Shown piece by piece: positions 21,016-36,726 of a DNA stretch of 64,000 nucleotides. Within the stretch, counting starts at the first letter, position 1; every line of letters starts with the position of its first letter. The DNA comes from an uncultured Alphaproteobacteria bacterium (GTDB lineage Bacteria; Pseudomonadota; Alphaproteobacteria; RF32; CAG-239). Made by a program: the position numbers and the translations under genes. The stretch spans positions 175,507 to 239,506 of the forward strand of contig CALXPT010000001.1 of assembly GCA_944390355.1 (NCBI GenBank), given 5' to 3'. Below the pieces are notes generated by a model. That model made no database searches, was not told the origin of the DNA, and worked only from the letters and a program-made list of their open reading frames with translations.

Positions 21016-21090
21016 GCCGCCGTAGCTCAGTGGTAGAGCACGTCATTGGTAATGACGGGGTCGTAAGTCCGATTCTTATCGGCGGCACCA
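21016..21090 (+). tRNA. tRNA-Thr (anticodon GGU)
   Basis: Manual fold. Acceptor GCCGCCG/CGGCGGC. D-arm GCTCAGTGGTAGAGC. Anticodon loop TTGGTAA. T-arm. Encoded CCA. Confidence 0.85.
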
Positions 21091-22623
21091 TTTATCAGTT
21101 TCTGGCGTTTTTAGTAGTTCATTGAATGGCTTAACTATTGAAAACGCTATATTTTTTCCTTCAGTTTTGCAGTCCGATAATATTAATTTCAAAATGTCTC
21201 TTTTTTCAGAAATAATCGGACTTTTTAAGAATTTTCCTACATTTGCTGCTATTTCCGCGATATTTGCTAGTATTTCATCAGTTTCAGCATCAATCTCAAG
21301 GTATTTATCCATATCTTTTTGTAGTTTTTCTTTTTCCATTTCAATTTCAGTTTTCAGTTCATTATACATTTTTTCATCACATTTGCCTTGAATATAGCCA
21401 CGGAACAAGGTTTTGAGCTGTTCATCTAATTGATTTACCTTGATAGTAATATCACGTTTGAGAGTCGCTGTATTTACTCTTTCTTCTTTAAGCTGCTTTT
21501 TGACTTCGGCTTTAATATTTTTTAGCATATCGTCACTAACGGCAAGAGGTAACGACAATTCTTTTTCAAGCTGGGCGAGGATTTTGGCTTCATTGATTGG
21601 TTTTTGTGAACATTTGGAACGTAATTTGTTACATTTTAAATAATTGTAAGAATGTTTATCGTCTTTTACTTTAGTTTCACAAGTCATTAAACTACCACAA
21701 CAACCACATCTGACTAAACCTGTAAAAATATATTGTTTATCTCCATAATATAATTTACTTGGTGCTCGTTTTCTTCCTTCCATAGTATCTTGGACAATTT
21801 GAAACAATTCTTTATCTATAAATAAAGGATAAGGATGTTTGTAAACTTTGCCTTTTTGCGTAAAATATCCAATGTAAAAAGTGTTTTTCAGTATATTTTG
21901 AACTTGAGCTCGACTAATTGTTTTATTTACACGACACATTTTTGAAGATAATCCTAAGGTTCTGGCTAGATTGGTAATGTCTTGCAAGGTTCGACCGCCT
22001 TTGGCATATTCTTCAAAAAGTCTTTTAACCTTTGGTGCTCGTTCTTCATCTATAATTATATTTGCTGGAGTCGATTTGGTTTTTGATATATTTAAATATC
22101 CTACCGGTGCACAAGATTGCCATTGTCCTGCTTCTCTTTTATATTCCTGACTGCGTAAAACATTGTCTCTTAAAGCACCCACATACATCTTAGCGGATAA
22201 AATTCCCATATCCCAACGTAAAATATCAGAAGAGGTACTGTCTTTATGCAAATAGAAACCTTCTTTATAAAAATGTATCTCTATTCTTCCTTGTTTACGC
22301 AAATCGTCTAATTCAACACATTCCTTATATCCTCTTTGCAATCTATCGACACAATTTACAACAATAGCGGTTTTGTGTTTTTGAGATTTTACAAACTCAA
22401 GCATTTCATAAAATTTTAAACGCCCACCTCGCGTTGAACTTTCAACAATAGAGAATTTATCAAGAATCTTAAATTTGTGATTGTTACAATAATCAACAAC
22501 CGTTTTAAGTTGTGCATCAATGGACGCTCCTTTCTTTTGTTCTTCCGATGAAACTCGAGCAAATATAACGGCTTGTTTACATTCTTCATCTGCAATATTT
22601 TGATATTTATTTCTTTTAGACAT
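21076..22623 (-). CDS. Large serine recombinase (island integrase)
   Basis: 515 aa. N-terminal resolvase catalytic domain (VIFARVSSEEQ with catalytic Ser). Recombinase domain, Cys-rich zinc ribbon (CGCCGSLMTC), C-terminal coiled coil. 3' end overlaps tRNA-Thr 3' end by 15 nt. Confidence 0.85.
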   Translation of the reverse strand: MSKRNKYQNIADEECKQAVIFARVSSEEQKKGASIDAQLKTVVDYCNNHKFKILDKFSIVESSTRGGRLKFYEMLEFVKSQKHKTAIVVNCVDRLQRGYKECVELDDLRKQGRIEIHFYKEGFYLHKDSTSSDILRWDMGILSAKMYVGALRDNVLRSQEYKREAGQWQSCAPVGYLNISKTKSTPANIIIDEERAPKVKRLFEEYAKGGRTLQDITNLARTLGLSSKMCRVNKTISRAQVQNILKNTFYIGYFTQKGKVYKHPYPLFIDKELFQIVQDTMEGRKRAPSKLYYGDKQYIFTGLVRCGCCGSLMTCETKVKDDKHSYNYLKCNKLRSKCSQKPINEAKILAQLEKELSLPLAVSDDMLKNIKAEVKKQLKEERVNTATLKRDITIKVNQLDEQLKTLFRGYIQGKCDEKMYNELKTEIEMEKEKLQKDMDKYLEIDAETDEILANIAEIAANVGKFLKSPIISEKRDILKLILSDCKTEGKNIAFSIVKPFNELLKTPETDKWCRR

Positions 22624-22742
22624 GATGTTACTCCTTTGTTTTTACATTACATTTATTATGTCGTGTTATTTTGGGAAAGTACGCAGTTATTTTCAGTTTC
22701 TTGCAATTTTTTTACTAACAAATTACTGATATTTCAAAATGT

Positions 22743-22799
22743 TAACCTAATTCCCAATTGGAACGAGGTTATAAAAAGTTATTGTCGTTAACGTCACGA
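22743..22799. repeat. Composite site: 27-bp imperfect palindrome (AACCTAATTCCCAATTGGAACGAGGTT) plus TTATTGTCGTTAACGTCACGAA motif; left direct repeat of the module
   Basis: Near-identical arrangement at 27960-28030. Related 27-bp site at 26461-26487. Confidence 0.6.
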
Positions 22800-22844
22800 A
22801 GTTAAAAAATAACCTCTGCTAAAATTTACAGAGGTTTGAGGTAT

Positions 22845-23030
22845 TCAAGGTGATTTAGTGTCATTAATGTCCGTTAGTTGTTTTTCAGATTGCTTTGCAT
22901 GATAAACAGCCTTTGCTCCTAAATAGAAAAAACGGATTAATTTGTTAGTCATTTCAGTTAATTCATCATCCGTAAAATCGGGATAATAAATCTTTAATTC
23001 TTCTTTTATTTCATTAAACGTATCAATCAT
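22845..23030 (-). CDS. Small hypothetical protein
   Basis: 61-aa ORF, no clear RBS. Weak. Confidence 0.2.
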   Translation of the reverse strand: MIDTFNEIKEELKIYYPDFTDDELTEMTNKLIRFFYLGAKAVYHAKQSEKQLTDINDTKSP

Positions 23031-23229
23031 AATAATTATATGTCGGGATTGAATAAATATGTAAAACAGGAAACGAAAAATTTTAATTTCTAGCAGATTT
23101 TAGTTTATAGTATGTGTACGTTTAAGGTTTCTTTATTGCTTAATTATATTTTAATTGTTAGAATTACATTAAGATATGCATAAAAGAAATATATATAAAA
23201 AATTTACTATTCCATATTAAAATATAAAG

Positions 23230-24228
23230 TTGAGGAATATTGTGTGGAACAATTTTAGATTTATAGATTTATTTGCAGGTATTGGTGGAATAAGGCTTGG
23301 CTTCGAAGCTGTTGGCGGTCGTTGTGTTTTTTCTTCAGAATTTGATGAGGATGCTTGTAAGACATACGAAGCTAATTTTGGAGAACATCCATCTGGTGAT
23401 ATTACAAAAATAAATGCCGCAGATATACCAGACTTTGATATTCTTTTAGGCGGATTTCCTTGTCAAGCCTTTTCTATAATTGGAAAAAAAGAAGGATTTG
23501 CAAATGAAACTTGTGGGACTTTGTTTTTTGATATTGAACGAATATTAAAAGAAAAACGACCAGCTGCATTTATGCTAGAAAATGTAAAAAATCTTACGGC
23601 ACATGATGGCGGAAAGACATTTAAAATTATAAAAGAACATTTAGAACATTTGGGGTATCATATATACGCAAAGGTTTTAAATGCTATAGACTTTGGTGTG
23701 CCACAAAATAGAGAGCGTATAATAATCGTGGGTTTTTTAGAAAATGTAAATTTTCATTTTCCAGTACCTGTCTCAATTGAAAATCGCAAAGTATTAAAAG
23801 ATATATTAGAGCAAAATGTTGATAAAAAATACTATGTGAATGACAAAATTAAAAAGTCTAGATTGGAGAGACTAAAAGACAAAAATTATCCTAAACCTTA
23901 TATTTCTCATGAAAATATGGCAGGTTCTGTTACTCCACATCCTTATTCTTCTGCTTTAAGAGCTGGAGCATCAGCAAATTATATATTAATTAATGATGAA
24001 AGACGTCCTACTGAAAGAGAAATGCTAAGAATACAAGGCTTTCCTGATAGTTTTAAGATTGTACTTCCATATAGTAAAATAAAAAAGCAATGTGGAAACT
24101 CCGTTGCTGTCCCCGTTATTCAAGCTGTTGCTCGAGAAATGATTAAAGCTTTAACTTCACCAACAAGGATAAAAAACAATTCTAGCAAGAGTTCTTGTGA
24201 TTATTTAAAACAAGGAGTTTTATTATGA
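23230..24228 (+). CDS. DNA cytosine-5 methyltransferase
   Basis: 332 aa. Motif I FAGIGG, motif IV GFPCQAFS, ENV motif. Start TTG 23230 or GTG 23242 after GAGGAA. Confidence 0.85.
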   Translation: MRNIVWNNFRFIDLFAGIGGIRLGFEAVGGRCVFSSEFDEDACKTYEANFGEHPSGDITKINAADIPDFDILLGGFPCQAFSIIGKKEGFANETCGTLFFDIERILKEKRPAAFMLENVKNLTAHDGGKTFKIIKEHLEHLGYHIYAKVLNAIDFGVPQNRERIIIVGFLENVNFHFPVPVSIENRKVLKDILEQNVDKKYYVNDKIKKSRLERLKDKNYPKPYISHENMAGSVTPHPYSSALRAGASANYILINDERRPTEREMLRIQGFPDSFKIVLPYSKIKKQCGNSVAVPVIQAVAREMIKALTSPTRIKNNSSKSSCDYLKQGVLL

Positions 24229-25277
24229 GTATATACGATGATGCCAAAAAGGCATTAGACACAGTATTAAACAAATCAAGAGTACATTTATACAAACCGA
24301 TTCAAATTGCTGAAATTTTATATCATGATCGTATATACAAAGATATAAATCTTCTGAATTTAGAAGATTACAGAAATAAAAGTAAAAAATGGCGAGATGA
24401 TATATGTATTCAATTATTAGGTAGGGTATGTACTAGTAGTGCAAAATTCCAAGACAATTTGTTTGAAACTAACGCTCTTCCTCCAAAATTTATCAATGCA
24501 CTAGGCATAAAAAACAGAGAAACACATGGAGCTATTGAAGCATATATATACAACAAATTTATAGCAAAACACAGTCAATTGTCCTCGGCATTATCGTACT
24601 GTATAGATTCGACTATTAGCACTTTTGATGTTAAGCATTTAATAGATTCATTTTGGTGTGAACCTGGACTTAAGCGTAGCTTAGATAAAATTTATGAAAT
24701 TATCGTGTATGCATTATTTGCAACATTAGTGGAAATTTTGGAATTTAAAGTTCAAGTACATGTAGAAAAAAAGCATTTAGACTTACTAGATGATTTTTCT
24801 GAATTTGCACAAAAAGTGATGTGTATAGACTTTCAAAATCCCCAATATATTCAAGATGCAAGAGTGTATCGTGTCGGAGTGACAAATGCAGCCGATAGAG
24901 GTTTGGATATGTATTCTAACTGGGGACCTGCTATACAAATAAAGCACTTAAGTTTAGATGTCGAGCTTGCTGAAAATATAGTAAATAGTGTATCATCTGA
25001 TAGAATAGTAATTGTTTGTAAAAATGCAGAAAAAGATGTTATTTTATCTCTTCTAACTCAGATAGGTTGGAAAAGTAAAATACAAAGTATTATTACAGAG
25101 AACAACTTAATTAATTGGTACGAAAAGGCATTGCGAGGAAAATTTGCTAAAATTATCGGCCAAAAATTATTAGACCGTTTAAGAGATGAAATTATCAATG
25201 AATTTCCTCCCATTAATAATATTCCTGATGTTATAAAAAATCGTCATTATGATAAGATATCAATAGAAATGTTATAA
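24225..25277 (+). CDS. Putative Type II restriction endonuclease partner of the C5-MTase
   Basis: 350-aa ORF overlapping MTase stop (ATGA). No fold-level motif confidently seen. Confidence 0.45.
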   Translation: MSIYDDAKKALDTVLNKSRVHLYKPIQIAEILYHDRIYKDINLLNLEDYRNKSKKWRDDICIQLLGRVCTSSAKFQDNLFETNALPPKFINALGIKNRETHGAIEAYIYNKFIAKHSQLSSALSYCIDSTISTFDVKHLIDSFWCEPGLKRSLDKIYEIIVYALFATLVEILEFKVQVHVEKKHLDLLDDFSEFAQKVMCIDFQNPQYIQDARVYRVGVTNAADRGLDMYSNWGPAIQIKHLSLDVELAENIVNSVSSDRIVIVCKNAEKDVILSLLTQIGWKSKIQSIITENNLINWYEKALRGKFAKIIGQKLLDRLRDEIINEFPPINNIPDVIKNRHYDKISIEML

Positions 25278-25639
25278 ATTTAACTATTCTTTGTTTCTAT
25301 TAATAAGATAACTTCTAGTTCAAATCTGGAAGTTATTTTTTACTATTCGACTTAAAGATTTATCATCCTAGAATCGTAGCAAAATGTTACCAAGAACGTG
25401 AGTTTTAGGGGCTCGCGGATGGGAAAATATACTGCATAATATAAATAGTTAATGAGTGAAACAACTATTTATGAAAGGAAAAACAATGTGGCATGTAAAA
25501 TTAAATAATACAATTCTTCCAACGCCTTATCAATATTTTAGCGATTGTCTTAAGGAATGCAAAAGACTGCAATGGGTTATGGTTGCGGTATGTACTGAAC
25601 CTGTATTTGTTGACTAATTTGGTATCAAGGAGATTTGCT

Positions 25640-25909
25640 ATGTTAAAAGATTTTGAAAACTGGTTGCTAAATAATAATTACAGACCTACCACCGCTTTTG
25701 ATTATCAAGGAAGAATTGAAAGATTATGTCGTGCTGAAGGTTATACTTTGTCTCATTTGGTTGAAAACATTGCTTTGATTTTACCTGAATATGAAATTAA
25801 CGGTAAAAAATCAAGTTATGGTAAAAGAAGCCATACTTCAGTTAGACAAGCCTTAAGACGTTTTAAAATGTTTTTGATATCAAATAAATTAATTGAAAGT
25901 GCAAACTAA
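25640..25909 (+). CDS. Small hypothetical protein
   Basis: Strong RBS AAGGAG before ATG 25640 (ORF-track start 25583 less likely). Stop overlaps next start (ATGA). Confidence 0.4.
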   Translation: MLKDFENWLLNNNYRPTTAFDYQGRIERLCRAEGYTLSHLVENIALILPEYEINGKKSSYGKRSHTSVRQALRRFKMFLISNKLIESAN

Positions 25910-26226
25910 TGACTGATATCAAAACATTAAATGATAACTTTAGAAGAACCTTTAGCGGTGGAGGAGTTATGTTAACTTGTGGAATTAATGCCAAAAATCA
26001 AAGTGAACAGGCTGAAATTCTTAATCAAGTTAGATGTTTTAATAATTTTACCACCGCCAATGAGCCGTATAATGAACATGATTTTGGAAGTTTTAACTAC
26101 AAAGGAGAACAAATTTATTGGAAAATTGATTATTATGATAAAAATTATCAATTTTGTTCAGAAGATCCAAGTAATCCAAATATAACTAACCGAATTATGA
26201 CGATTATGTTATCTCACGAATATTAA
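25909..26226 (+). CDS. DUF3768-like small protein
   Basis: 105 aa. N-terminal pattern LNDNFRRTFSGGGVMLTCGI resembles the DUF3768 family common on plasmids/ICEs of alphaproteobacteria. Confidence 0.4.
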   Translation: MTDIKTLNDNFRRTFSGGGVMLTCGINAKNQSEQAEILNQVRCFNNFTTANEPYNEHDFGSFNYKGEQIYWKIDYYDKNYQFCSEDPSNPNITNRIMTIMLSHEY

Positions 26227-26330
26227 AACAATTTAGTCCGATTTGAGTAATATCAAGTCGGATTTTTTATTATTGATAATTTAACTTCTTAACATCAACG
26301 ACAACAAGTTATTTTAAACATCTCATTTTT

Positions 26331-26401
26331 TAACCCGTGGATACAATCGTTTTATTTGATATAGGTTTTATTACTTTTATTAAATTCGGATATCCACGGG
26401 T
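26331..26401. repeat. Inverted repeat AACCCGTGGATA ... TATCCACGGGTT (12-13 bp arms, about 46-bp spacer)
   Basis: Seen directly. Lies downstream of the HUH Rep gene. Candidate hairpin origin/nick region. Confidence 0.5.
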
Positions 26402-26460
26402 TGTTTATGGAGATATGGGATATAATTTTATAAGATATTTATGAAATTTCAAATAATTAA

Positions 26461-26487
26461 CCTAATTCTCAATCGGAATGAGGTTGT
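26461..26487. repeat. 27-bp imperfect palindromic site (AACCTAATTCTCAATCGGAATGAGGTT)
   Basis: Related to sites at 22743 and (inverted) 27960. Confidence 0.55.
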
Positions 26488-26662
26488 TTTTTATATCATA
26501 CTAACTTCACAATACAACTTTTGCAAAATTCAGCAGAAGTTAAACATAATAATACCTATTTACAATGTGTTATAACTTTTCAAAAGAATCTGATATAATT
26601 GTATTGTCGTGAATTTTGGGATTTGTAAACGGTTAAACTTCCATTATGATGTTTTTTATAAT

Positions 26663-27658
26663 TTAGTTTCTTTGAGGATTAAGATTAAATAAGTCTTCAG
26701 AAAAAATCATATGGTCATTATCAAATTTACCATTCCAATATATTTTTATTTCTTTCATACAATAATAAGTAACATTTAACAATTTTGGTTCAATTGGTTT
26801 TAAATTCATGCAATATGACGGTAAGTTTTCTCTCATCATTGCTTGAAAAATAGCATCTTGGAGTTCTTGTTCACTAAATCTTCCTCGATTAAATAATATA
26901 TGAAAATGCCAGTCCGAACTTATTCCATTTTCAGCAAATGCAATAAACCGAAGATGGTGATGCTCCCAATTGTTCATCAAACTCTTTTCAAATGCTTTCA
27001 TAATGTTTCTTAAATGACTAATTGAGTTATATAAATCTTTAGTCTTCTTGTTTTCTGGTAGTTGTACAGTTAAAAAATGAGTCGGTTTATATTCTTTAGC
27101 AATCCATTTATTTAATCTTTTTTTTATCGTGGAAGAATTTGTTGCCTTTTTTCCTTGAGACACAGATTTTATGATATTACCCATTTTTTGACTGTAGGAA
27201 TCAGTGTTTTTATTTGGTATAGGTTCGATTGCTTTTATATCATTTTGTAGTTCATGGGTTGTTTTAGGCTTGTTTATGCTCGTGTTTTGGTTAAGATTTT
27301 CATTATTAGCACATCTGGAGATATAAGAGAGTGTATTAACTATTTTCTGTATATAGTTTATTTTATTTTGCTTGAGTTTTTCATTATAAATACTCTTAAA
27401 TTTATTATAAAAACCATTTAATAAAGAAGAATTAACTAAATAATCCTTAAAAGAAATACCATATTCAATAAGAAAAGGACTCAATTTTACTTTATCAATA
27501 ACAGAAATTAATCCATATCTTCTTATAATACCTAAGACATATACATAATCATCAATACATCTTGTTGCATGACTTATTGACAATTTTAACATCTTGTTTT
27601 CTGTCATTATCTCTTGCAACCATATTCTTTCATATTTGTATTTATTCATTTTTATCAT
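26663..27658 (-). CDS. HUH-endonuclease (rolling-circle Rep/relaxase-like) protein
   Basis: 331 aa. HUH motif WHFHILF preceded by HLRFIAFAENG. Tyr candidates in YYCMKE. Flanked by inverted 27-bp sites and TTGTCGT repeats. Confidence 0.5.
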   Translation of the reverse strand: MIKMNKYKYERIWLQEIMTENKMLKLSISHATRCIDDYVYVLGIIRRYGLISVIDKVKLSPFLIEYGISFKDYLVNSSLLNGFYNKFKSIYNEKLKQNKINYIQKIVNTLSYISRCANNENLNQNTSINKPKTTHELQNDIKAIEPIPNKNTDSYSQKMGNIIKSVSQGKKATNSSTIKKRLNKWIAKEYKPTHFLTVQLPENKKTKDLYNSISHLRNIMKAFEKSLMNNWEHHHLRFIAFAENGISSDWHFHILFNRGRFSEQELQDAIFQAMMRENLPSYCMNLKPIEPKLLNVTYYCMKEIKIYWNGKFDNDHMIFSEDLFNLNPQRN

Positions 27659-27959
27659 CCAATTAGTATTTATTTAAGTTATTAATTTTATTTATTTTTT
27701 TAATAATAATTAAGTTATTTTTTGATATAAAAATAACAAAGGCCGCATGAATAAAAGCTTCCTCGTATCCCGAACTGATGAAACAGTTATACCAAGATTA
27801 TGGTGGATTTTGGTAATCGGTTTATAATGATACATTTAAATAGAATTGTTTTTTTCACAAAATCTAATGATAAAATTTCTTAAAGATAAAAATTTTTTGG
27901 TTTTACATTTTTGTTTTCCATGACATTATACATATAAAATCACATAAAAATAATGAGTT

Positions 27960-28030
27960 AACTTCATTCCAAATAAGAATTAGGTTGTTGGGTTATTTTA
28001 TAAAAAAGTTATTGTCGTTAACGTCACGAA
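27960..28030. repeat. Composite site (27-bp palindrome inverted relative to 22743 copy, plus TTATTGTCGTTAACGTCACGAA); right direct repeat of the module
   Basis: 24-nt motif identical to 22776-22799. Confidence 0.6.
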
Positions 28031-28447
28031 CTTTTAACATCTGAATATCAAAGGTTGAAATCATTAAATGACATTGATGTCGGTTAATCAACTTTTGTAA
28101 AAATTTGCAGAAGTCTATTTGAAAAATAAAAATCAAAGAAGCTCTCTCGCACGCAAAGGCCTTGACTAAAATTCGCTTAACAAAAAAACTAATCTTATCC
28201 AGTATGGTACGGCATAGTATGGCAGTATGGTATCCATGGAGGGTGTAGATGTCGGGCATCCTTTATGGCGGTGGAGCTATCCCGTTATGCTTATGCCAGT
28301 CCGATATTAAAATAAAGAGACAAAGACGGTTAAATCCTTGCCTCTCTATATATCTGTGCTATACAGTTTTTGAACTCCGAAGTTATATTGTCGTGTTATT
28401 TGCCAAATCGGAGCGGTAAAAACTCAACCTGTGCGTAAGTTGATAAA

Positions 28448-28930
28448 TTAAAATAAATCAAGTTGCTGATCTTTTTCTATATGCTTAATATTTAAAATAG
28501 AATCTATTTGTTTATTATTTACAACCATACCATCAATAACTACAAAAAACTGTTTATTTAAATTTTTCATAAGCATTATATTATTTAATGTTCCTTTGCT
28601 TTCTCCATCCCATATCATTAATCCATAATCCGTGTCATTAGCCATCTGTTCATCTTTTAAAGTGTATAAATTACGACCTTTCTCATTATGCAAAGCATAG
28701 ACATTCTTAGTTTGCCACTGTCCTACATTGTTCCTTATAGTTTTACCTGCATAATATACAAAGACATTTTGATAATTTTTCTTAAACAAATATTTTTGAA
28801 TACTTAAATCAACCCCTTTAGCATCACCAACTAAAATGGTAATATTCTTAGATATAATATTATCAATTTTTTTTACCGCAGATAATGGTAATTTCTTTAT
28901 GCTAATAGATCCAGAAATAAAAACTTTCAT
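28448..28930 (-). CDS. SLOG/DprA-LOG-like Rossmann domain protein
   Basis: 160 aa. ILVGDAKGVDLSIQKY resembles the GxAxGxD motif of DprA/Smf/YpsA-type SLOG domains. Start overlaps PRTase stop (ATGA). Confidence 0.45.
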   Translation of the reverse strand: MKVFISGSISIKKLPLSAVKKIDNIISKNITILVGDAKGVDLSIQKYLFKKNYQNVFVYYAGKTIRNNVGQWQTKNVYALHNEKGRNLYTLKDEQMANDTDYGLMIWDGESKGTLNNIMLMKNLNKQFFVVIDGMVVNNKQIDSILNIKHIEKDQQLDLF

Positions 28931-29574
28931 TAATCAGAAATCCTTGTTTTGGTTAAGGTAAAAACAGATATGTTATTATACCCGTTTTCCTTTAAAGCAT
29001 CCACATAAGCTCTCAACGTATTTCCACTATCAAAAACATCGTCAAAAATAAGATAATTATTATCCTTATTCAACAAAGAATAACGGATTGAAAGAGAATT
29101 TTTAACTTGTGCATATTTATCTTGTTCATCAATATTTTTAATCTGTTCTATATTTGTGGTATCCAAAGCATTAAATAAAAATTGTTTATTAAAAGTTTCT
29201 GATATTCCTTTGGCTACTTCAAATACAGGTTGAAAAGGACGAGCCTTATTAGATGGTGGAACTATTAAAATTGTATCTATGTTTGCTATAAATTTCTTAA
29301 AATCTTCCGAATTTGATAACAATTCAAGAATCCTTGTTACAGCAGAAAGATTATAACGATATTTTAATTGGTAAACCAAATTCCCCATTTCAGTTCTTTC
29401 TGTATCAAATTTACCAACTCCATTTGAGTATTCTTCAACGAGCACACTTCTTAATGTATGTTTATCGTATGCAAAACCTAAATTCCAAGGACCATATAAT
29501 GCAATCATATTTGAATTCTCCGAGTAATTTCTTTCAGTATACATATAAAAAAAATAAAAGCAATATTTACACAA
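28930..29574 (-). CDS. Phosphoribosyltransferase (type I PRTase) domain protein
   Basis: 214 aa. PRPP-binding motif YLIFDDVFDSGNTL (compare VLLVDDVLTTGSTL in the housekeeping comF-like gene at 48170). Confidence 0.65.
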   Translation of the reverse strand: MCKYCFYFFYMYTERNYSENSNMIALYGPWNLGFAYDKHTLRSVLVEEYSNGVGKFDTERTEMGNLVYQLKYRYNLSAVTRILELLSNSEDFKKFIANIDTILIVPPSNKARPFQPVFEVAKGISETFNKQFLFNALDTTNIEQIKNIDEQDKYAQVKNSLSIRYSLLNKDNNYLIFDDVFDSGNTLRAYVDALKENGYNNISVFTLTKTRISD

Positions 29575-29627
29575 GTATTATACAGTATGATTAGTTTAAT
29601 GAAATAATTCTAATTTTCGACTTAATT

Positions 29628-29791
29628 TCTTAAAATCGTCATAGAAATTAGTCCGATAATTGCATAGTATCTCGCACCATTTTTAAGATAGCACCTTTTA
29701 AGGTGCTTTTTTGCTATATAAACCAAGCCTTTCATTCAGTCCGATTTTATATATTTTGAAATTAGCGATTTTTGTAAACTTATCGGACTTT
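29628..29791. repeat. Inter-cassette repeat element copy A (140-bp core with TIRs AGTCCGATAA/TTATCGGACT, GCACCATTT core, internal hairpin+T-run, third AGTCCGAT half-site)
   Basis: Core 29650-29789. Conserved upstream CTTAAAATCGTCATA. Copies at 31729-31868, 34206-34565 (with 221-bp insert), 36345-36598 (truncated). Confidence 0.65.
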
Positions 29792-29910
29792 GAATGAAAA
29801 AAAACAATTTCTAAGATTTTTTTATTGCATAAAGGTGTGCGAAAATTAAAAATATAAATAGATAAATGCATTTTTTTTAATATAATAAATAATATTTAAT
29901 AGTCTGTTGG

Positions 29911-30807: not shown

Positions 30808-31691
30808 AAACACTATGGGAAATTATGTCTTGGGTATCCCAAAAAGAAAAATTTACAAATATCAAAGACTATATTAATTTTGCAAAAGTTTATTTAGAAT
30901 TCATTTCCTCAGAACTACAGGCTGAGATTGTTGCTAAAAACGAAAATAATTATAAATTTTTGCAATATAGAAGAGATGGTGAATATAATATCACCAGACC
31001 AATTAATGGAAACTTATTTATGAGTTCTGATAAATATGATGAGTTTTCAAAGAGATTTATTGAAATATTAAATAATATAAAAAATATTAAACATGACTTT
31101 GCATTAAGAAACGATATTAATAGCTTTATTTATACAACGCAACAATCTATTGGTTGCGCCTTAGATGCTCTTCCTTCGTCTAAAACAAATACATCAAGAA
31201 AAGTTAATGGAGATTTATTTGAAAGATTAATGCAGCTTATCATTGCTCAATTAGGTTTTGATATAACATCTGAAACTTTGGGAGTAAAAATTCCTCAATC
31301 AAATGAAATAATGAATTACCAAAATGATATAGAAATCAAAATTAAAGGAGAAATTGTTGCCATTGGCTCTGTCAAAACTTCAAGTAAAGATCGAATAGAT
31401 AAAATTTTTCTTGATAAACTAATGTATAATAGACTAACGGCTACAGAAACGCCTCATTTTGCGATTTTTTTACATGATGTTCAACGAGCTGGAAAAGAGC
31501 CCGAATATAAAATAGGTCAAACATTTTTAACAGGACACTTTAAGGCCTATACAATAGGTTTAAATCCCCTTGATGGAGTATATTACTGTGATTTACGACC
31601 GATTATGAAAACAGATAACTTATTGAAAAGACATATTCAATCTTTAGATTGTCTTCTTTGTCAAGATATATGGAATTTTGTTTCTAAATAA
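30804..31691 (+). CDS. Putative Type II restriction endonuclease (PD-(D/E)xK-like)
   Basis: 295 aa. Overlaps MTase stop. Candidate D...DIEIK motif. Confidence 0.45.
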   Translation: MKTLWEIMSWVSQKEKFTNIKDYINFAKVYLEFISSELQAEIVAKNENNYKFLQYRRDGEYNITRPINGNLFMSSDKYDEFSKRFIEILNNIKNIKHDFALRNDINSFIYTTQQSIGCALDALPSSKTNTSRKVNGDLFERLMQLIIAQLGFDITSETLGVKIPQSNEIMNYQNDIEIKIKGEIVAIGSVKTSSKDRIDKIFLDKLMYNRLTATETPHFAIFLHDVQRAGKEPEYKIGQTFLTGHFKAYTIGLNPLDGVYYCDLRPIMKTDNLLKRHIQSLDCLLCQDIWNFVSK

Positions 31692-31728
31692 TTTTCTTAC
31701 TCAAAAGCTTAAAATCGTCATAGTTTTT

Positions 31729-31868
31729 AGTCCGATAATTGCACGGTATCTCGCACCATTTTTGATAATGCACCGATTTAGGTGCTTTTTTTGTATATAT
31801 TCCAAGCCTTTCAGAGAGTCCGATTTTTGAGTTTTTAAAATTAGAGATTTTTGATGAATTATCGGACT
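31729..31868. repeat. Inter-cassette repeat element copy B
   Basis: Same TIRs, GCACCATTTTT core, hairpin GCACCGATTTAGGTGC+T-run. Extra AGTCCGATAAAA half-site at about 31915. Confidence 0.65.
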
Positions 31869-32055
31869 TTTTGTGCAAACGCTAAGAAAATCAAGCTTTT
31901 TAGCATTTCAAATTCTAGTCCGATAAAATTTAATATAAACAATCTCTCAAACGAACATTTTTAGAACATTATTGTTGATTTTTAACTTTTTTACTTTATG
32001 ACTTGTAATAAGTATGGTAATTTTCTTAATAGAATCACTGTTAATGAGTTGAAAT

Positions 32056-34159: not shown

Positions 34160-34205
34160 TTAACTCCAGATTATATGCCAACTGCTTAAATTCATCATAG
34201 TTTTC

Positions 34206-34565
34206 AGTCCGATAACTGCATAGTATCGCGCACCATTTAACACAAAAGCCTCCGTTTGGGGGCTTTTGTGTTAAATGCATGAACGCTATTGAAGCGGACT
34301 TACGGGGGCAGAGTAAGTCCGGAGCGGGTAGTTGGTGAAAACAAGTGTAGAGCTTTAGCGAATAGCTTAGCGAAACACGAAGTTTGAACCTTACGGCGCG
34401 AAAGGGACCCGTTGGCTCAAAGCCAATGGGAATATACATTCTTATCGGCGGCACCATTTTTAGAATGCACCGATTGAGGTGCTTCTTTTATATATATTCC
34501 AAGCCTTTCCAAAAGTCCGATGTTGAGAATTTTTAATTTGATAATTTTTGTAAACTTATCGGACT
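34206..34565. repeat. Inter-cassette repeat element copy C, interrupted by a 221-bp segment that ends with a copy of the tRNA-Thr 3' end (attR-like)
   Basis: TIRs at 34206-34215 and 34556-34565. Insert flanked by GCACCATTT direct repeats (34230-34238 and 34451-34459). ATTCTTATCGGCGGCACCATTT at 34438-34459 equals tRNA 21072-21093. Confidence 0.65.
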
Positions 34566-36232
34566 TTTGTATGATTATCTAAGAACTCAACAAAATCTTT
34601 CGCTTGTTCCGGCGTTACATTTTTATTTTCATATTTTTGCGGAGGATAAAAGTTTTCTACTAGAGATGTTGGCGCTCTCTTGATATTTCCCCAATATGGA
34701 GCTTTACCGCTTAAATAATCATAAACACTCATTCCTTTTGAATCTTTCAGATTTATGTTCGCCCCTTTTTCTACCAGATATTTTGCTATATCCAGATGTC
34801 CTTCTTGCACGGCATACATCAAGGCCGTACGTTCTCCATTTGCAATGCAAATATGTTCCCAACAATTATTATCTTCTAAATTTCCCTTCTTTGTTTGAGC
34901 ATTGATATCCGCTCCGGCTTCAAGCAAAATTTTTACGCTTTCCATAAATCCATATTGAGCTGCATACATTAAAGCTGTTTTGCCAAATTCATTTTGAGCA
35001 TTGACATCCGTATTTAAGCCTATGCAATTCAATTTTTTTTCATTATTAGGGCAAGCTTCAATCAATACCTTTAATGCATCCGGTCGGTGTATGCTTACCA
35101 TTAAAATTTCATCTTTTTGATCCGGCGTTTCAGGTTCTGTAAAGACTTCCCCTTTTATTTTCTTATTTTCAATCCACGTTTTAATTTCCTGAACAGGAAC
35201 TCCTGAAAAAATCTTATAACGCAACGTGTCTTCATCAACAATAGAACTCTGTGCTGCCATTGGAATCATCGTGTAACGAGCATAAGAGTAAGCTTTTTCT
35301 TCAGAAACCTGAAATGTTTTTACATAATGTTTTGTTAGTTTCTCAACAGCTTGATTAAAGCCTATTCCATGTTTTATAACTTCATCAAAATATTTATAAT
35401 TCGGATATGATTCCATTGCCCATGCTTCAAGAGGCAAAGCTTGCAAATATTTTTGATCCGGATAATAACGACGCTCAAAGTTCCAATCCGGATCATAATG
35501 GCTTAAAATATTTTCATAAATATTTTTTGCCATATAAACATAACGTATTGAGCCTGGGTTATAAAATTCGAGTTCTCGTTGAATATAGTTATAATATTCT
35601 TCAACATCTGCTGGAAATTCATATTGAGGATACTGACTGCAATCTGAAATATCTAAAGTTTCTGCACCGTGACCACCACCAGCACTATCTAAAATAGCTG
35701 TTAAATGCAGTTTTTGTGCTGTTTTGCATGGGACAACAATTTTCCATGGAACATAACGCATATTTGTACTTTGCTGGTTCCATATATTGAAAAATTTTGA
35801 AAAATTAAACACTCCTACTTCTATTAAACAACTTAAATCTTTGTAACATTTCATATAATCATTCTTGATTAACTCTTCATTTTTATGCTGATACATTCTA
35901 TAAAACGGAGAATCAGGAACAACTTTTTCATATTGTGCAATGACATCTGTATGTAAGCGATGAGCTATTTTCTCAAATTCTGGCGTATTTACTTTTTGAG
36001 GTTCATATATACTAAGCAATATTAAATATTCGATAGCCGCAGAGTTATTTTTATCTGCTAATTTTTTTAAGTCTTTTATGGCTTGTTGGGGATTATCTTT
36101 TATATGTTTTACAATATTTTCATACTGTTTATCAATATCTTGTTCTATTTGTTCAGCTGTAACAAGAGAGGAGAAAAAAAGAAATGCAAAACAAATCATA
36201 AAAATTATTTTTTTAGCTCGAAACAAAATCAT
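34556..36232 (-). CDS. Secreted ankyrin-repeat protein
   Basis: 558 aa. Signal peptide. At least three ankyrin repeats (GKTALMYAAQYGFMESVKILLEAGADINAQ; GERTALMYAVQEGHLDIAKYLVEKGANINLKD). Confidence 0.8.
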   Translation of the reverse strand: MILFRAKKIIFMICFAFLFFSSLVTAEQIEQDIDKQYENIVKHIKDNPQQAIKDLKKLADKNNSAAIEYLILLSIYEPQKVNTPEFEKIAHRLHTDVIAQYEKVVPDSPFYRMYQHKNEELIKNDYMKCYKDLSCLIEVGVFNFSKFFNIWNQQSTNMRYVPWKIVVPCKTAQKLHLTAILDSAGGGHGAETLDISDCSQYPQYEFPADVEEYYNYIQRELEFYNPGSIRYVYMAKNIYENILSHYDPDWNFERRYYPDQKYLQALPLEAWAMESYPNYKYFDEVIKHGIGFNQAVEKLTKHYVKTFQVSEEKAYSYARYTMIPMAAQSSIVDEDTLRYKIFSGVPVQEIKTWIENKKIKGEVFTEPETPDQKDEILMVSIHRPDALKVLIEACPNNEKKLNCIGLNTDVNAQNEFGKTALMYAAQYGFMESVKILLEAGADINAQTKKGNLEDNNCWEHICIANGERTALMYAVQEGHLDIAKYLVEKGANINLKDSKGMSVYDYLSGKAPYWGNIKRAPTSLVENFYPPQKYENKNVTPEQAKDFVEFLDNHTKVR

Positions 36233-36344
36233 GTTATGTCCCTCTAATTATATCATTAATTTTAGCTTAGATTGAAAACATTAAAATTTTATTATGATAA
36301 GTTTTAACTTTCCTTATTATTTTCTTAAAATCGTCATAAAAATT

Positions 36345-36598
36345 AGTCCGATAACTGCATAGTATCGCGCACCATTTAACACAAAAGCCTCCGTTTGGGG
36401 GCTTTTGTGTTAAATGCATGAACGCTATTGAAGCGGACTTACGGGGGCAGAGTAAGTCCGGAGCGGGTAGTTGGTGAAAACAAGTGTAGAGCTTTAGCGA
36501 ATAGCTTAGCGAAACACGAAGTTTGAACCTTACGGCGCGAAAGGGACCCGTTGGCTCAAAGCCAATGGGAATATACATTCTTATCGGCGGCACCATTT
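36345..36598. repeat. Repeat element copy D (left TIR + 221-bp segment + second tRNA-Thr 3' end copy); island right boundary
   Basis: 36320-36600 is identical to 34180-34460 (about 280 bp). ATTCTTATCGGCGGCACCATTT at 36577-36598. Degenerate half-site AAGTCCGAT at 36652. Confidence 0.65.
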
Positions 36599-36726
36599 TT
36601 GATATTTCCGCCTAAATGGTGGATTTTTTTATTTTTAAATAAATGCTTGTCAAGTCCGATTAATTTATTATTTGACTTTAACAAATACTATATGTAGGGT
36701 ACTAAATATAGAGCACGGAGAGGACT

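Follow-up and report, generated by a model that had tools for sequence, protein, structure and literature searches.

The stretch of DNA analysed here (hereafter the window, 64 kb of contig CALXPT010000001.1 from an uncultured Alphaproteobacteria bacterium) carries at 21.07-29.68 kb the core (~8.6 kb) of an integrative element, which has been put into the 3' end of a tRNA-Thr gene by a large serine recombinase. This core sits in a ~21.8-kb array of defence cassettes, the further cassettes being bounded by att-like repeats out to ~42.8 kb. Within the core, a set of short repeats accompanies the recombinase gene, the gene of an HUH protein (Rep) and a locus derived from a fragment of the latter, and these repeats may be read, with a probability of about one half, as paralogous promoter-operator modules that jointly control the three. 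The related loci compared with the window, 29 from genomes and 8 from metagenomes, are designated by L-numbers (such as L001). The constant parts of the element, its backbone, are the following:

21016-21090, plus strand: tRNA-Thr(GGT), the integration target, whose 3' end overlaps the final codons of the recombinase gene
21076-22623, minus strand: large serine recombinase with Resolvase, Recombinase and Zn_ribbon_recom domains
22845-23030, minus strand: p61, a small backbone protein and constant neighbour of the recombinase, matching no known family
25489-26264, plus strand: backbone operon of p42 (25489-25617), p89 (25640-25909) and DUF3768 (25909-26226), with a terminator at 26235-26264
26663-27658, minus strand: HUH Rep, PF23343-type, with a single catalytic Tyr299
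27659-27959, minus strand: Rep leader, 300 nt, AT-rich and conserved
28115-28441: conserved non-coding end of the backbone, with (AGTATGG)x3 at 28201-28230, a minus-strand terminator at 28312-28349 and the half-site box E3 at 28386-28401

The GC content of the island is 27-33%, against ~43% outside, and its genes are ordered as serine recombinase, p61, C5-methyltransferase with HaeII-family endonuclease, p42/p89/DUF3768, HUH Rep, a pair with a phosphoribosyltransferase (PRTase), two further type II restriction-modification (R-M) systems and an ankyrin-repeat protein. The recombinase matches PF00239, PF07508 and PF13408, is CcrB/XisF-like and is placed at one end of the element; in L001, L007, L008 and L010 it is 94-95% identical and lies beside the same tRNA. 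Between hosts the backbone is 91-97% identical, whereas the flanking TrpRS and neighbouring genes reach 74-81%, and the mobile entity is therefore the whole island, which, as is expected of an integrative element, combines boundary repeats derived from its target with an identity above that of the flanking chromosome.

Nearly all of these proteins are left unnamed by the source databases, the few names given being “hypothetical protein”, and the accessory proteins p42, p89, DUF3768 and p61 have no described function. A literature search on DUF3768 found no papers, searches of the PDB by sequence with Rep, DUF3768 and p89 returned no matches, and an Rfam scan yielded the tRNAs alone at gathering thresholds, with nothing credible at E<=5. 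The island family, characterized by a serine recombinase, a PF23343 HUH Rep, DUF3768 and the core-binding-domain-like p89, appears to be undescribed so far.

The repeats of the core are of four kinds, named A (a 27-bp quasi-palindrome), B (a 28-nt block), C (a hairpin) and E (a box with the half-site TTGTCGT), and are arranged as follows, together with the non-coding locus that lies among them:

22656-22676, plus strand: E1, half-site box TTATGTCGTGTTATTTTGGGA in the recombinase leader
22744-22770: A1, 6 bp upstream of TTGAAA-17-TAAAAA, facing the recombinase gene
22773-22800, plus strand: B1, 28 nt identical to B3, with the core palindrome TGTCGTTAACGTCA at 22783-22796
22811-22836, minus strand: C1, hairpin followed by a T-run, the terminator of p61, paralogous to C2 and C3
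26286-26307, minus strand: B2, a degenerate inverted copy of B (TTGTTGTCGTTGATGTTAAGAA), found also in L017 and L019
26296-26452, minus strand: non-coding locus, driven by the predicted A2-proximal promoter (TTGAAA 26452-26447, TAAAAT 26430-26425), with a hairpin at 26332-26400 (12-bp stem)
26459-26485: A2, the second copy of the quasi-palindrome
26517-26540: C2, hairpin ACTTTTGC...GCAGAAGT, downstream of the Rep stop codon
26598-26621, plus strand: E2, half-site box ATTGTCGTGAATTTTGGGA directly past the Rep stop codon
27960-27986: A3, the third copy, inverted, spacer included, with respect to the 95%-identical L041 and L043
28003-28030, plus strand: B3, identical to B1
28091-28114: C3, hairpin

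The quasi-palindrome A, of the form AACCTAATTC-N7-GAANGAGGTT, occurs at these three places only in the whole 64 kb (expected 0.02), with all three copies in the island and none in the ~42 kb of host DNA. An initial annotation of this DNA had reported a 27-bp palindrome in three copies, the last inverted, and this is what is found, with its coordinates corrected by 1-2 nt. The 24-nt block that it had seen at two places extends to 28 nt (22773-22800 = 28003-28030), the 22-mer TTATTGTCGTTAACGTCACGAA being identical at 22779 and 28009 (expected 0).

In two of the three control regions, directly upstream of A, B takes the form of a 14-16-bp palindrome (TTGTCGTT/AACGACAA), and in the third it is present only as the degenerate inverted copy, ~150 bp off. 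The motif TTGTCGT is the half-site of the B palindrome and also occurs singly, as E. The exact sequence ATTGTCGT is found seven times in the window, against 1.9 expected, and seven was reached in 1 of 100 shuffles. A short motif had been reported at six sites or more; four of its copies in 22.7-28.4 kb are exact (22781, 26603, 28011 and 28387), whereas those at 22656 and 26293 are one-off variants. Given that the C hairpin, which the initial annotation had not listed, is common to all three regions, the repeated unit is A-(B)-C, present three times in direct order, with the third A internally inverted.

Around this third copy (27940-28010), the comparison with L041 (4340-4420) and L043 (1040-1090) shows 13 extra nt in the window, which lengthen the palindrome by copying its opposite flank. 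The inversion and the 13-nt extension together are a template-switch signature at a hairpin.

Across the related loci, A occupies three fixed places of the backbone, namely the gap between p61 and the recombinase (with B and E), the region upstream of Rep (with B and C) and the region downstream of Rep (with C), and these positions are held in relatives whose Rep is as little as ~50% identical. Among 24 distinct versions of A, the arms pair at 84.5% of positions, against 23-60% when the register is slid, and they covary in a symmetric way, pair 10/18 changing from C-G to T-A and pair 11/17 from A-T to C-G. The geometry is 11-5-11, with a 5-nt spacer that is free to vary and a stem mismatch at 6/22 that is conserved in 23 of the 24 versions. 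The orientation of A relative to the gene is not fixed among relatives, which fits a symmetric protein on double-stranded DNA. B has a symmetric variant, TGTCCTTAAGGACA, in L024, and E1 persists even where the recombinase is only 38% identical. All the motifs are found again in many separate assemblies and are therefore no artefacts of sequencing, and the repeat copies first reported are real.

In all three position classes, distant family members included, a -35-like hexamer starts at +7 from A (6 bp between), and a -10-like hexamer follows 16-17 nt past it, facing away from A. In the window, this gives TTGAAA-17-TAAAAA towards the recombinase gene, TTATTT-17-TATAAT towards Rep and TTGAAA-16-TAAAAT towards the non-coding locus, and the A2-proximal promoter is within the best three predicted promoters of the region. 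Both hexamers are present at 22 of 53 distinct A instances, against 1.4% of random positions, and the register of the palindrome to the -35 and -10 is fixed across paralogues and orthologues, this evidence being at the level of consensus matches. From these arrangements we infer promoter activity, protein binding and co-regulation by the repeats.

The locus at 26296-26455, the third target of this predicted control, is a degenerate copy of a segment inside Rep (~27165-27324, roughly codons 112-164, a low-confidence linker), and this duplication of a Rep fragment is kept throughout the family. The Rep-internal segment and its second copy may represent an origin embedded in rep. The arms of the hairpin at 26332-26400 resemble DnaA boxes (TATCCACGG).

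Under the promoter-operator reading, a dimeric DNA-binding protein encoded by the element would occupy A, and the same protein or a second factor would occupy the TTGTCGT sites, so that the recombinase and Rep would be switched together and excision or integration would be coupled to replication or transfer. The candidate binders are p89 and the N-terminal domain of Rep. The former is a protein of 89 residues and four helices, the most conserved of the backbone (73-96% identical among the best 120 of 497 homologues), whose model (pLDDT, a measure of model confidence, of 86) is closest to the core-binding domain that tyrosine recombinases (XerA, IntI, lambda Int and Brujita Int) have at their N-terminus, although p89 itself lacks a catalytic domain; a weak Pfam hint points to Phage_int_SAM_5 (E 0.03). 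This core-binding-domain-like fold therefore makes p89 a candidate binder of the 11-5-11 site.

Several observations weigh against such control. Promoter-like hexamers are frequent in the AT-rich DNA of this region, 32 being found where 38.5 are expected, and kinship among the sequences compared inflates the counts. The element of L005 has p89 and no A, and in L005, as well as in the Rep region of L013, p89 and Rep are kept in the absence of A; A2 is lacking in L008, L009 and L013, and a search of L005 for A- or B-like repeats found none. Given that some elements have no A and others no A2, no single A site is indispensable, and the link between p89 and A is weak. In addition, the conserved mismatch at 6/22 and the inversion of A3 with its templated 13-nt extension point to hairpin or cruciform formation, which would also suit a role in single-stranded DNA.

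The Rep protein itself is a genuine HUH protein, as its motifs, conservation and fold agree. The motifs FLTVQL, HFHILF and YYCMKE are nearly invariant in 58 homologues, in which H251, H253, Y299 and K302 are at least 90% conserved, and the C-terminal domain is modelled (pLDDT 70-88) with an HUH-like fold, so that the HUH homology on which the initial annotation depended is confirmed. The best match in the PDB is the SIRV1 ORF119 Rep (2x3g; E 4.5e-3, prob 1.0), followed by the origin-binding domain of the adeno-associated virus (AAV) Rep, the RAYT 4er8 and the circovirus Rep, hits that are consistent with one another at weak E-values. Against PF23343 (REP_ORF2-G2P), the window Rep scores 25.4 bits, under the gathering cut-off of 27.8 bits, and its homologues P0031 (33.3) and P0002 (30.9) score above it. 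In relatives with a ~60%-identical Rep, the Rep leader is better conserved than the coding sequence.

The homologues of Rep all come from chromosomal contigs, the hosts being uncultured Alphaproteobacteria, mostly of the gut. No relative was found in collections of 72,556 plasmids and 50,697 phages. A search of IMG/VR with Rep gave one match, and a search of PLSDB with the region returned only matches to the R-M genes.

The variable genes of the core are cargo, held in slots of the backbone:

23088-25371, plus strand: R-M cassette, with a C5 cytosine methyltransferase (23230-24228), a HaeII-family endonuclease (24225-25277) and a terminator (25305-25339)
28448-29574, minus strand: ShosTA/PsyrTA-like pair, a PRTase and a partner of 160 residues

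More than 25 related loci of uncultured gut Alphaproteobacteria share this backbone, in the order recombinase, p61, slot, p42-p89-DUF3768, slot and Rep, with different cargo, for example, in L001 and L005. The R-M genes form a clean insertion of 2,284 bp at 23087|25372, with a single-nucleotide junction, and this slot is empty in L001, L010 and L019 and filled with unrelated cargo in L007 and L040. Between L001 and the window, 21016-23087 is 94% identical, 25372-26228 is 81% and 26300-28441 is 96%, and to the ~70 bp that follow 26228 in the window there correspond 3.4 kb of other cargo in L001. Further variable slots are 26229-26512, the region distal to A3 (in L003 and L009) and 28441-29612, and the HaeII R-M system occupies one of four insertion hot spots as independent cargo. 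A check of the cargo junctions for terminal inverted repeats or target duplications yielded no more than a pair of 6 nt, TTCTAG/CTAGAA; the right end that the cargoes have in common, ...TAGAAT, is most simply explained as the -10 of the promoter of the p42 operon.

At 28448-29574, the PRTase (214 residues) matches the PADLOC models PsyrT and ShosT, and its partner looks SLOG/DprA-like by eye. This pair is 99% identical and in the same slot in L041 and L043, and other genes take its place in L001, L002 and L045.

The initial annotation had seen in these 5.3 kb a module bounded by the repeats. This view does not survive the comparison of loci, by which the anatomy, conservation and boundaries of the element and the cargo status of its variable genes are established: the R-M cargo is a separate insertion, and the A, B and C sites hold their backbone positions whatever cargo lies between them. 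No relative was found in which the 5.3 kb had moved, been excised or become circular, and none of the captured contigs, when checked for circularity, was circular. The idea of an integrated rolling-circle replicon is retained in that the repeats do accompany an HUH Rep in an integrated mobile element, and is lost in that the 5.3 kb is not a replicon bounded by repeats, given the lack of any free or moved unit. The reading of a mini-replicon bounded by repeats is thus replaced by a tested anatomy.

One natural variant, L044 (contig OHBX01006447.1), which carries a 100%-identical fragment of the HaeII endonuclease, has a 1,730-bp deletion (25986-27715 of the window) that takes most of DUF3768, A2 and the whole of Rep. 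This Rep-less locus was considered as a product of recombination between A copies and rejected, as the ends of the deletion, 25986 and 27715, are not at repeats.

Past the core, the island is subdivided by direct repeats:

29612-29800, plus strand: R1, attR-like, with a P arm, the core GCACCATTT and a B' terminator, closing the 8.6-kb core element
31690-31879, 34185-34568 and 36306-36680: R2, R3 and R4, direct repeats of the R1 form

This form consists of the P arm, the core GCACCATTT and a terminator hairpin, then AGTCCGAT-N36-ATCGGACT, and 20 copies of AGTCCGAT are present in the window, where chance would give 1.25. Copies of the core GCACCATTT and of the tRNA 3' end are found at 29650, 31729, 34206/34439 and 36345/36578, and the 21-nt 3' end of the tRNA-Thr, TTCTTATCGGCGGCACCATTT, is repeated exactly at 34439 and 36578. 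Given that R1-R4 are homologous to the 3' ends of the tRNA-Thr and of the recombinase gene (21040-21230), the island looks like a tandem array with att-like bounds, in which R1-R4 separate single defence systems (ShosTA-like, R-M, R-M and the ankyrin protein). The right end of the island lies at ~42.7-42.8 kb, ahead of an open reading frame (ORF) of 51 residues and EPSP synthase, a placement made on the basis of synteny only.

R3 and R4 each contain, at 34230-34459 and 36369-36598, a GC-rich insert of ~220 nt, the two copies being 97% identical, which has GCACCATTT at its flanks and whose final 12 nt come from the 3' end of tRNA-Thr. This insert has a very stable RNA fold whichever strand is read (z -7.5, -7.3); no Rfam family matches it, and an overlapping ORF of 102 residues does not look like a protein. 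In L010 (8284-8462), 179 nt that duplicate the 3' end of the recombinase gene (96.6% identical) adjoin a P arm, which makes an attP-like P-core-P' junction within a chromosome and suggests tandem or decayed second elements.

Beyond R4, the low-GC segment 36700-42800 holds ten ORFs with almost no family matches, one being a DMT_6 transporter, and it is not common to the related genomes examined. In the window, tRNA-Thr and EPSP synthase (21016 and 42843) stand on either side of the island, and in L001 the 5' side of the tRNA adjoins EPSP synthase, the tRNA-Thr and the island segment (L001 11040-11500) being inverted relative to the EPSP-synthase gene in comparison with the window.

The main rival to the promoter-operator reading, doubtful as a whole, takes A and B as a site processed by the HUH Rep, either a double-strand origin or an origin of transfer (oriT), with A as the putative hairpin or as a palindrome bound by Rep and B, 8-22 nt away, as the conserved nick region. 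The additional copies of A and B would then serve termination, autoregulation or the generation of sub-circles. The arrangement resembles the plus-strand origin of the Ff phage M13, in which a hairpin is followed by TTGTTCCAAACTGGAACAA and then gene II, with a palindrome bound by pII between the hairpin and the gene: in both cases, an inverted repeat and a conserved block lie in AT-rich DNA a few hundred bp upstream of rep, with similar inner arms (TTCC...GGAA). Unlike in M13, the motif of the island is present in three copies, one of them at the recombinase gene, its spacer is unconserved and some elements with the same Rep have no motif; given that the M13 pII belongs to PF05144 and not to PF23343, the analogy is architectural only. 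In favour of the origin, B is 100% conserved in L006, L017 and L019, where Rep is only ~60% identical; against it, B is missing from L003 and L009, where Rep is 97% identical.

Hairpin formation in vivo is suggested by the mismatch kept in the stem and by the inversion of A3, and the copy of the Rep-internal segment downstream of Rep is what would be expected of an origin embedded in rep. On the other hand, the loop of A is not conserved and so cannot carry the nick site, a full copy of A and B lies at the recombinase gene, 4 kb from Rep, and L005 and L013 have neither A nor B near Rep, in addition to the three loci without A2. Two functional origins in direct repeat would also delete the DNA between them, yet more than 10 assemblies keep this arrangement, with no circular or plasmid forms in the collections searched or among the captured contigs.

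A further, unlikely proposal makes the island a capture platform of the serine recombinase, in which single defence systems would accrue as cassettes between the att-like repeats, downstream of a core able to replicate, the hairpin-prone A and B would be single-stranded DNA signals read by Rep and by p89 as a domesticated core-binding-domain protein, and sub-circles (such as the 5.2 kb of B1-B3 with the R-M genes) could be made and exchanged, as in a hybrid of integron-like accretion and rolling-circle processing.

The remaining readings fare worse than that of an origin. It is quite improbable that the repeats are passive, whether as duplicated terminator or insulator hairpins or as a selfish palindrome, similar to repetitive extragenic palindromes (REP) or miniature inverted-repeat transposable elements (MITE), that spread within the element with no dedicated binder. 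C1 does score as an intrinsic terminator, A2 is followed on the plus strand by GTTTTTT, and quasi-palindromes are prone to templated inversion of the type seen at A3; however, A1 and A3 have no T-run after them in either direction of transcription, and A is found only in the island, where its three backbone positions are constant, its arms covary symmetrically and its distance to the -35-like hexamer stays at 6 bp. A hairpin system of the REP/RAYT or IS200/IS605 type was likewise considered and rejected, as A is confined to the island and the relative orientation of the copies that flank Rep differs between elements.

The role of an internal recombination site, also raised by the initial annotation, has proved weak, and it is very unlikely that the A sites are crossover points at which the serine recombinase of the island, or a recombinase acting in trans, would excise, invert or exchange the DNA between them. 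Synteny in L003 and L009 ends exactly at the outer edge of A3, the contig of L004 ends at A, A3 is inverted between near-identical elements, and both the 11-5-11 geometry and the fold of p89 are reminiscent of recombinase core sites and their binding domains. The sites of serine recombinases have their symmetry centred on a dinucleotide; by contrast, A is 27 bp long, with an odd 5-nt spacer, and the backbone encodes no catalytic tyrosine recombinase. The distances between the junctions of the R-M cassette and the closest A or B site are 290 bp and 1,090 bp, the breakpoints at 26229, 26300, 26414 and 26509-12, like the ends of the L044 deletion, are not at A, and the real att repeats are the copies of the tRNA end.

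Finally, the IS91/ISCR/helitron-like rolling-circle transposon first proposed, with the repeats as its ends, has next to no probability: an HUH protein does lie between direct repeats, but Rep matches PF23343 only and no IS91-type transposase family, the contents vary between relatives while the supposed ends stay, the segment never moves as a unit, no second copy with different flanks is found in the window or elsewhere, and the synteny breaks are not at the B1 and B3 ends.

In kind, the island is an integrative element similar to integrative, mobilizable elements (IMEs) or genomic islands, with a serine recombinase, an initiator of the rolling-circle type and defence cargo. Streptococcal IMEs that combine a serine recombinase with a Rep-family initiator or relaxase (PMC5704250, PMC7563843) are also small integrated elements that bring their own recombinase along with an HUH-like protein of the rolling-circle type and modules of variable cargo. 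As in those elements, the element is more similar between hosts than the surrounding chromosome. Unlike the streptococcal elements, the island has uncultured gut Alphaproteobacteria as hosts, a Rep of PF23343 and not Rep_trans, the 3' end of tRNA-Thr as target and the accessory genes p42, p89, DUF3768 and p61, with no helper conjugative element seen. Rep could act as a relaxase.

Phage-inducible chromosomal islands (PICIs), such as the Staphylococcus aureus pathogenicity islands (SaPIs), carry an integrase, an initiator with its own origin repeats, a compact shared regulatory region and accessory or defence cargo. The island shares with this SaPI type a recombinase, an initiator, a predicted control region over both and defence cargo; unlike a PICI, it has no tyrosine integrase, primase-helicase Rep, packaging genes or identifiable master repressor, and a dependence on phage is not indicated. 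In arrays of integrative and conjugative elements and cis-mobilizable elements (ICE/CIME), integrative elements or their remnants accrete in tandem at tRNA or other att sites. Similarly, att-like P-core-B' sites divide the cargo blocks downstream of the recombinase-bearing element of the island, although each block here is one defence system of 2-2.5 kb and the repeats carry a foreign terminator from downstream of the tRNA.

These islands shuttle R-M, ShosTA-like and other defence genes between species of human and animal gut Alphaproteobacteria, and the proposed three-fold control module provides a handle on the coupling of excision to replication in them. If the promoter-operator reading is true, it would describe ordinary regulation of a mobile element in a poorly known host clade, which would be useful for annotation and unsurprising to specialists.

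Some minor features of the core remain to be described. The triplicated AGTATGG of the initial annotation is present at 28201-28230 and is not conserved in 11 relatives, where the indels are not multiples of three. The GC-richer stretch 28120-28450, which was considered as a single-strand origin, shows no unusual degree of structure on the two strands (z +0.27 and -0.19), and the candidate was dropped. In the leader of the recombinase (22625-22700, minus strand), TACTTTCC can pair with the ribosome-binding site GGAGTA, leaving the E box in the loop, and this predicted pairing could provide translational control of the recombinase.

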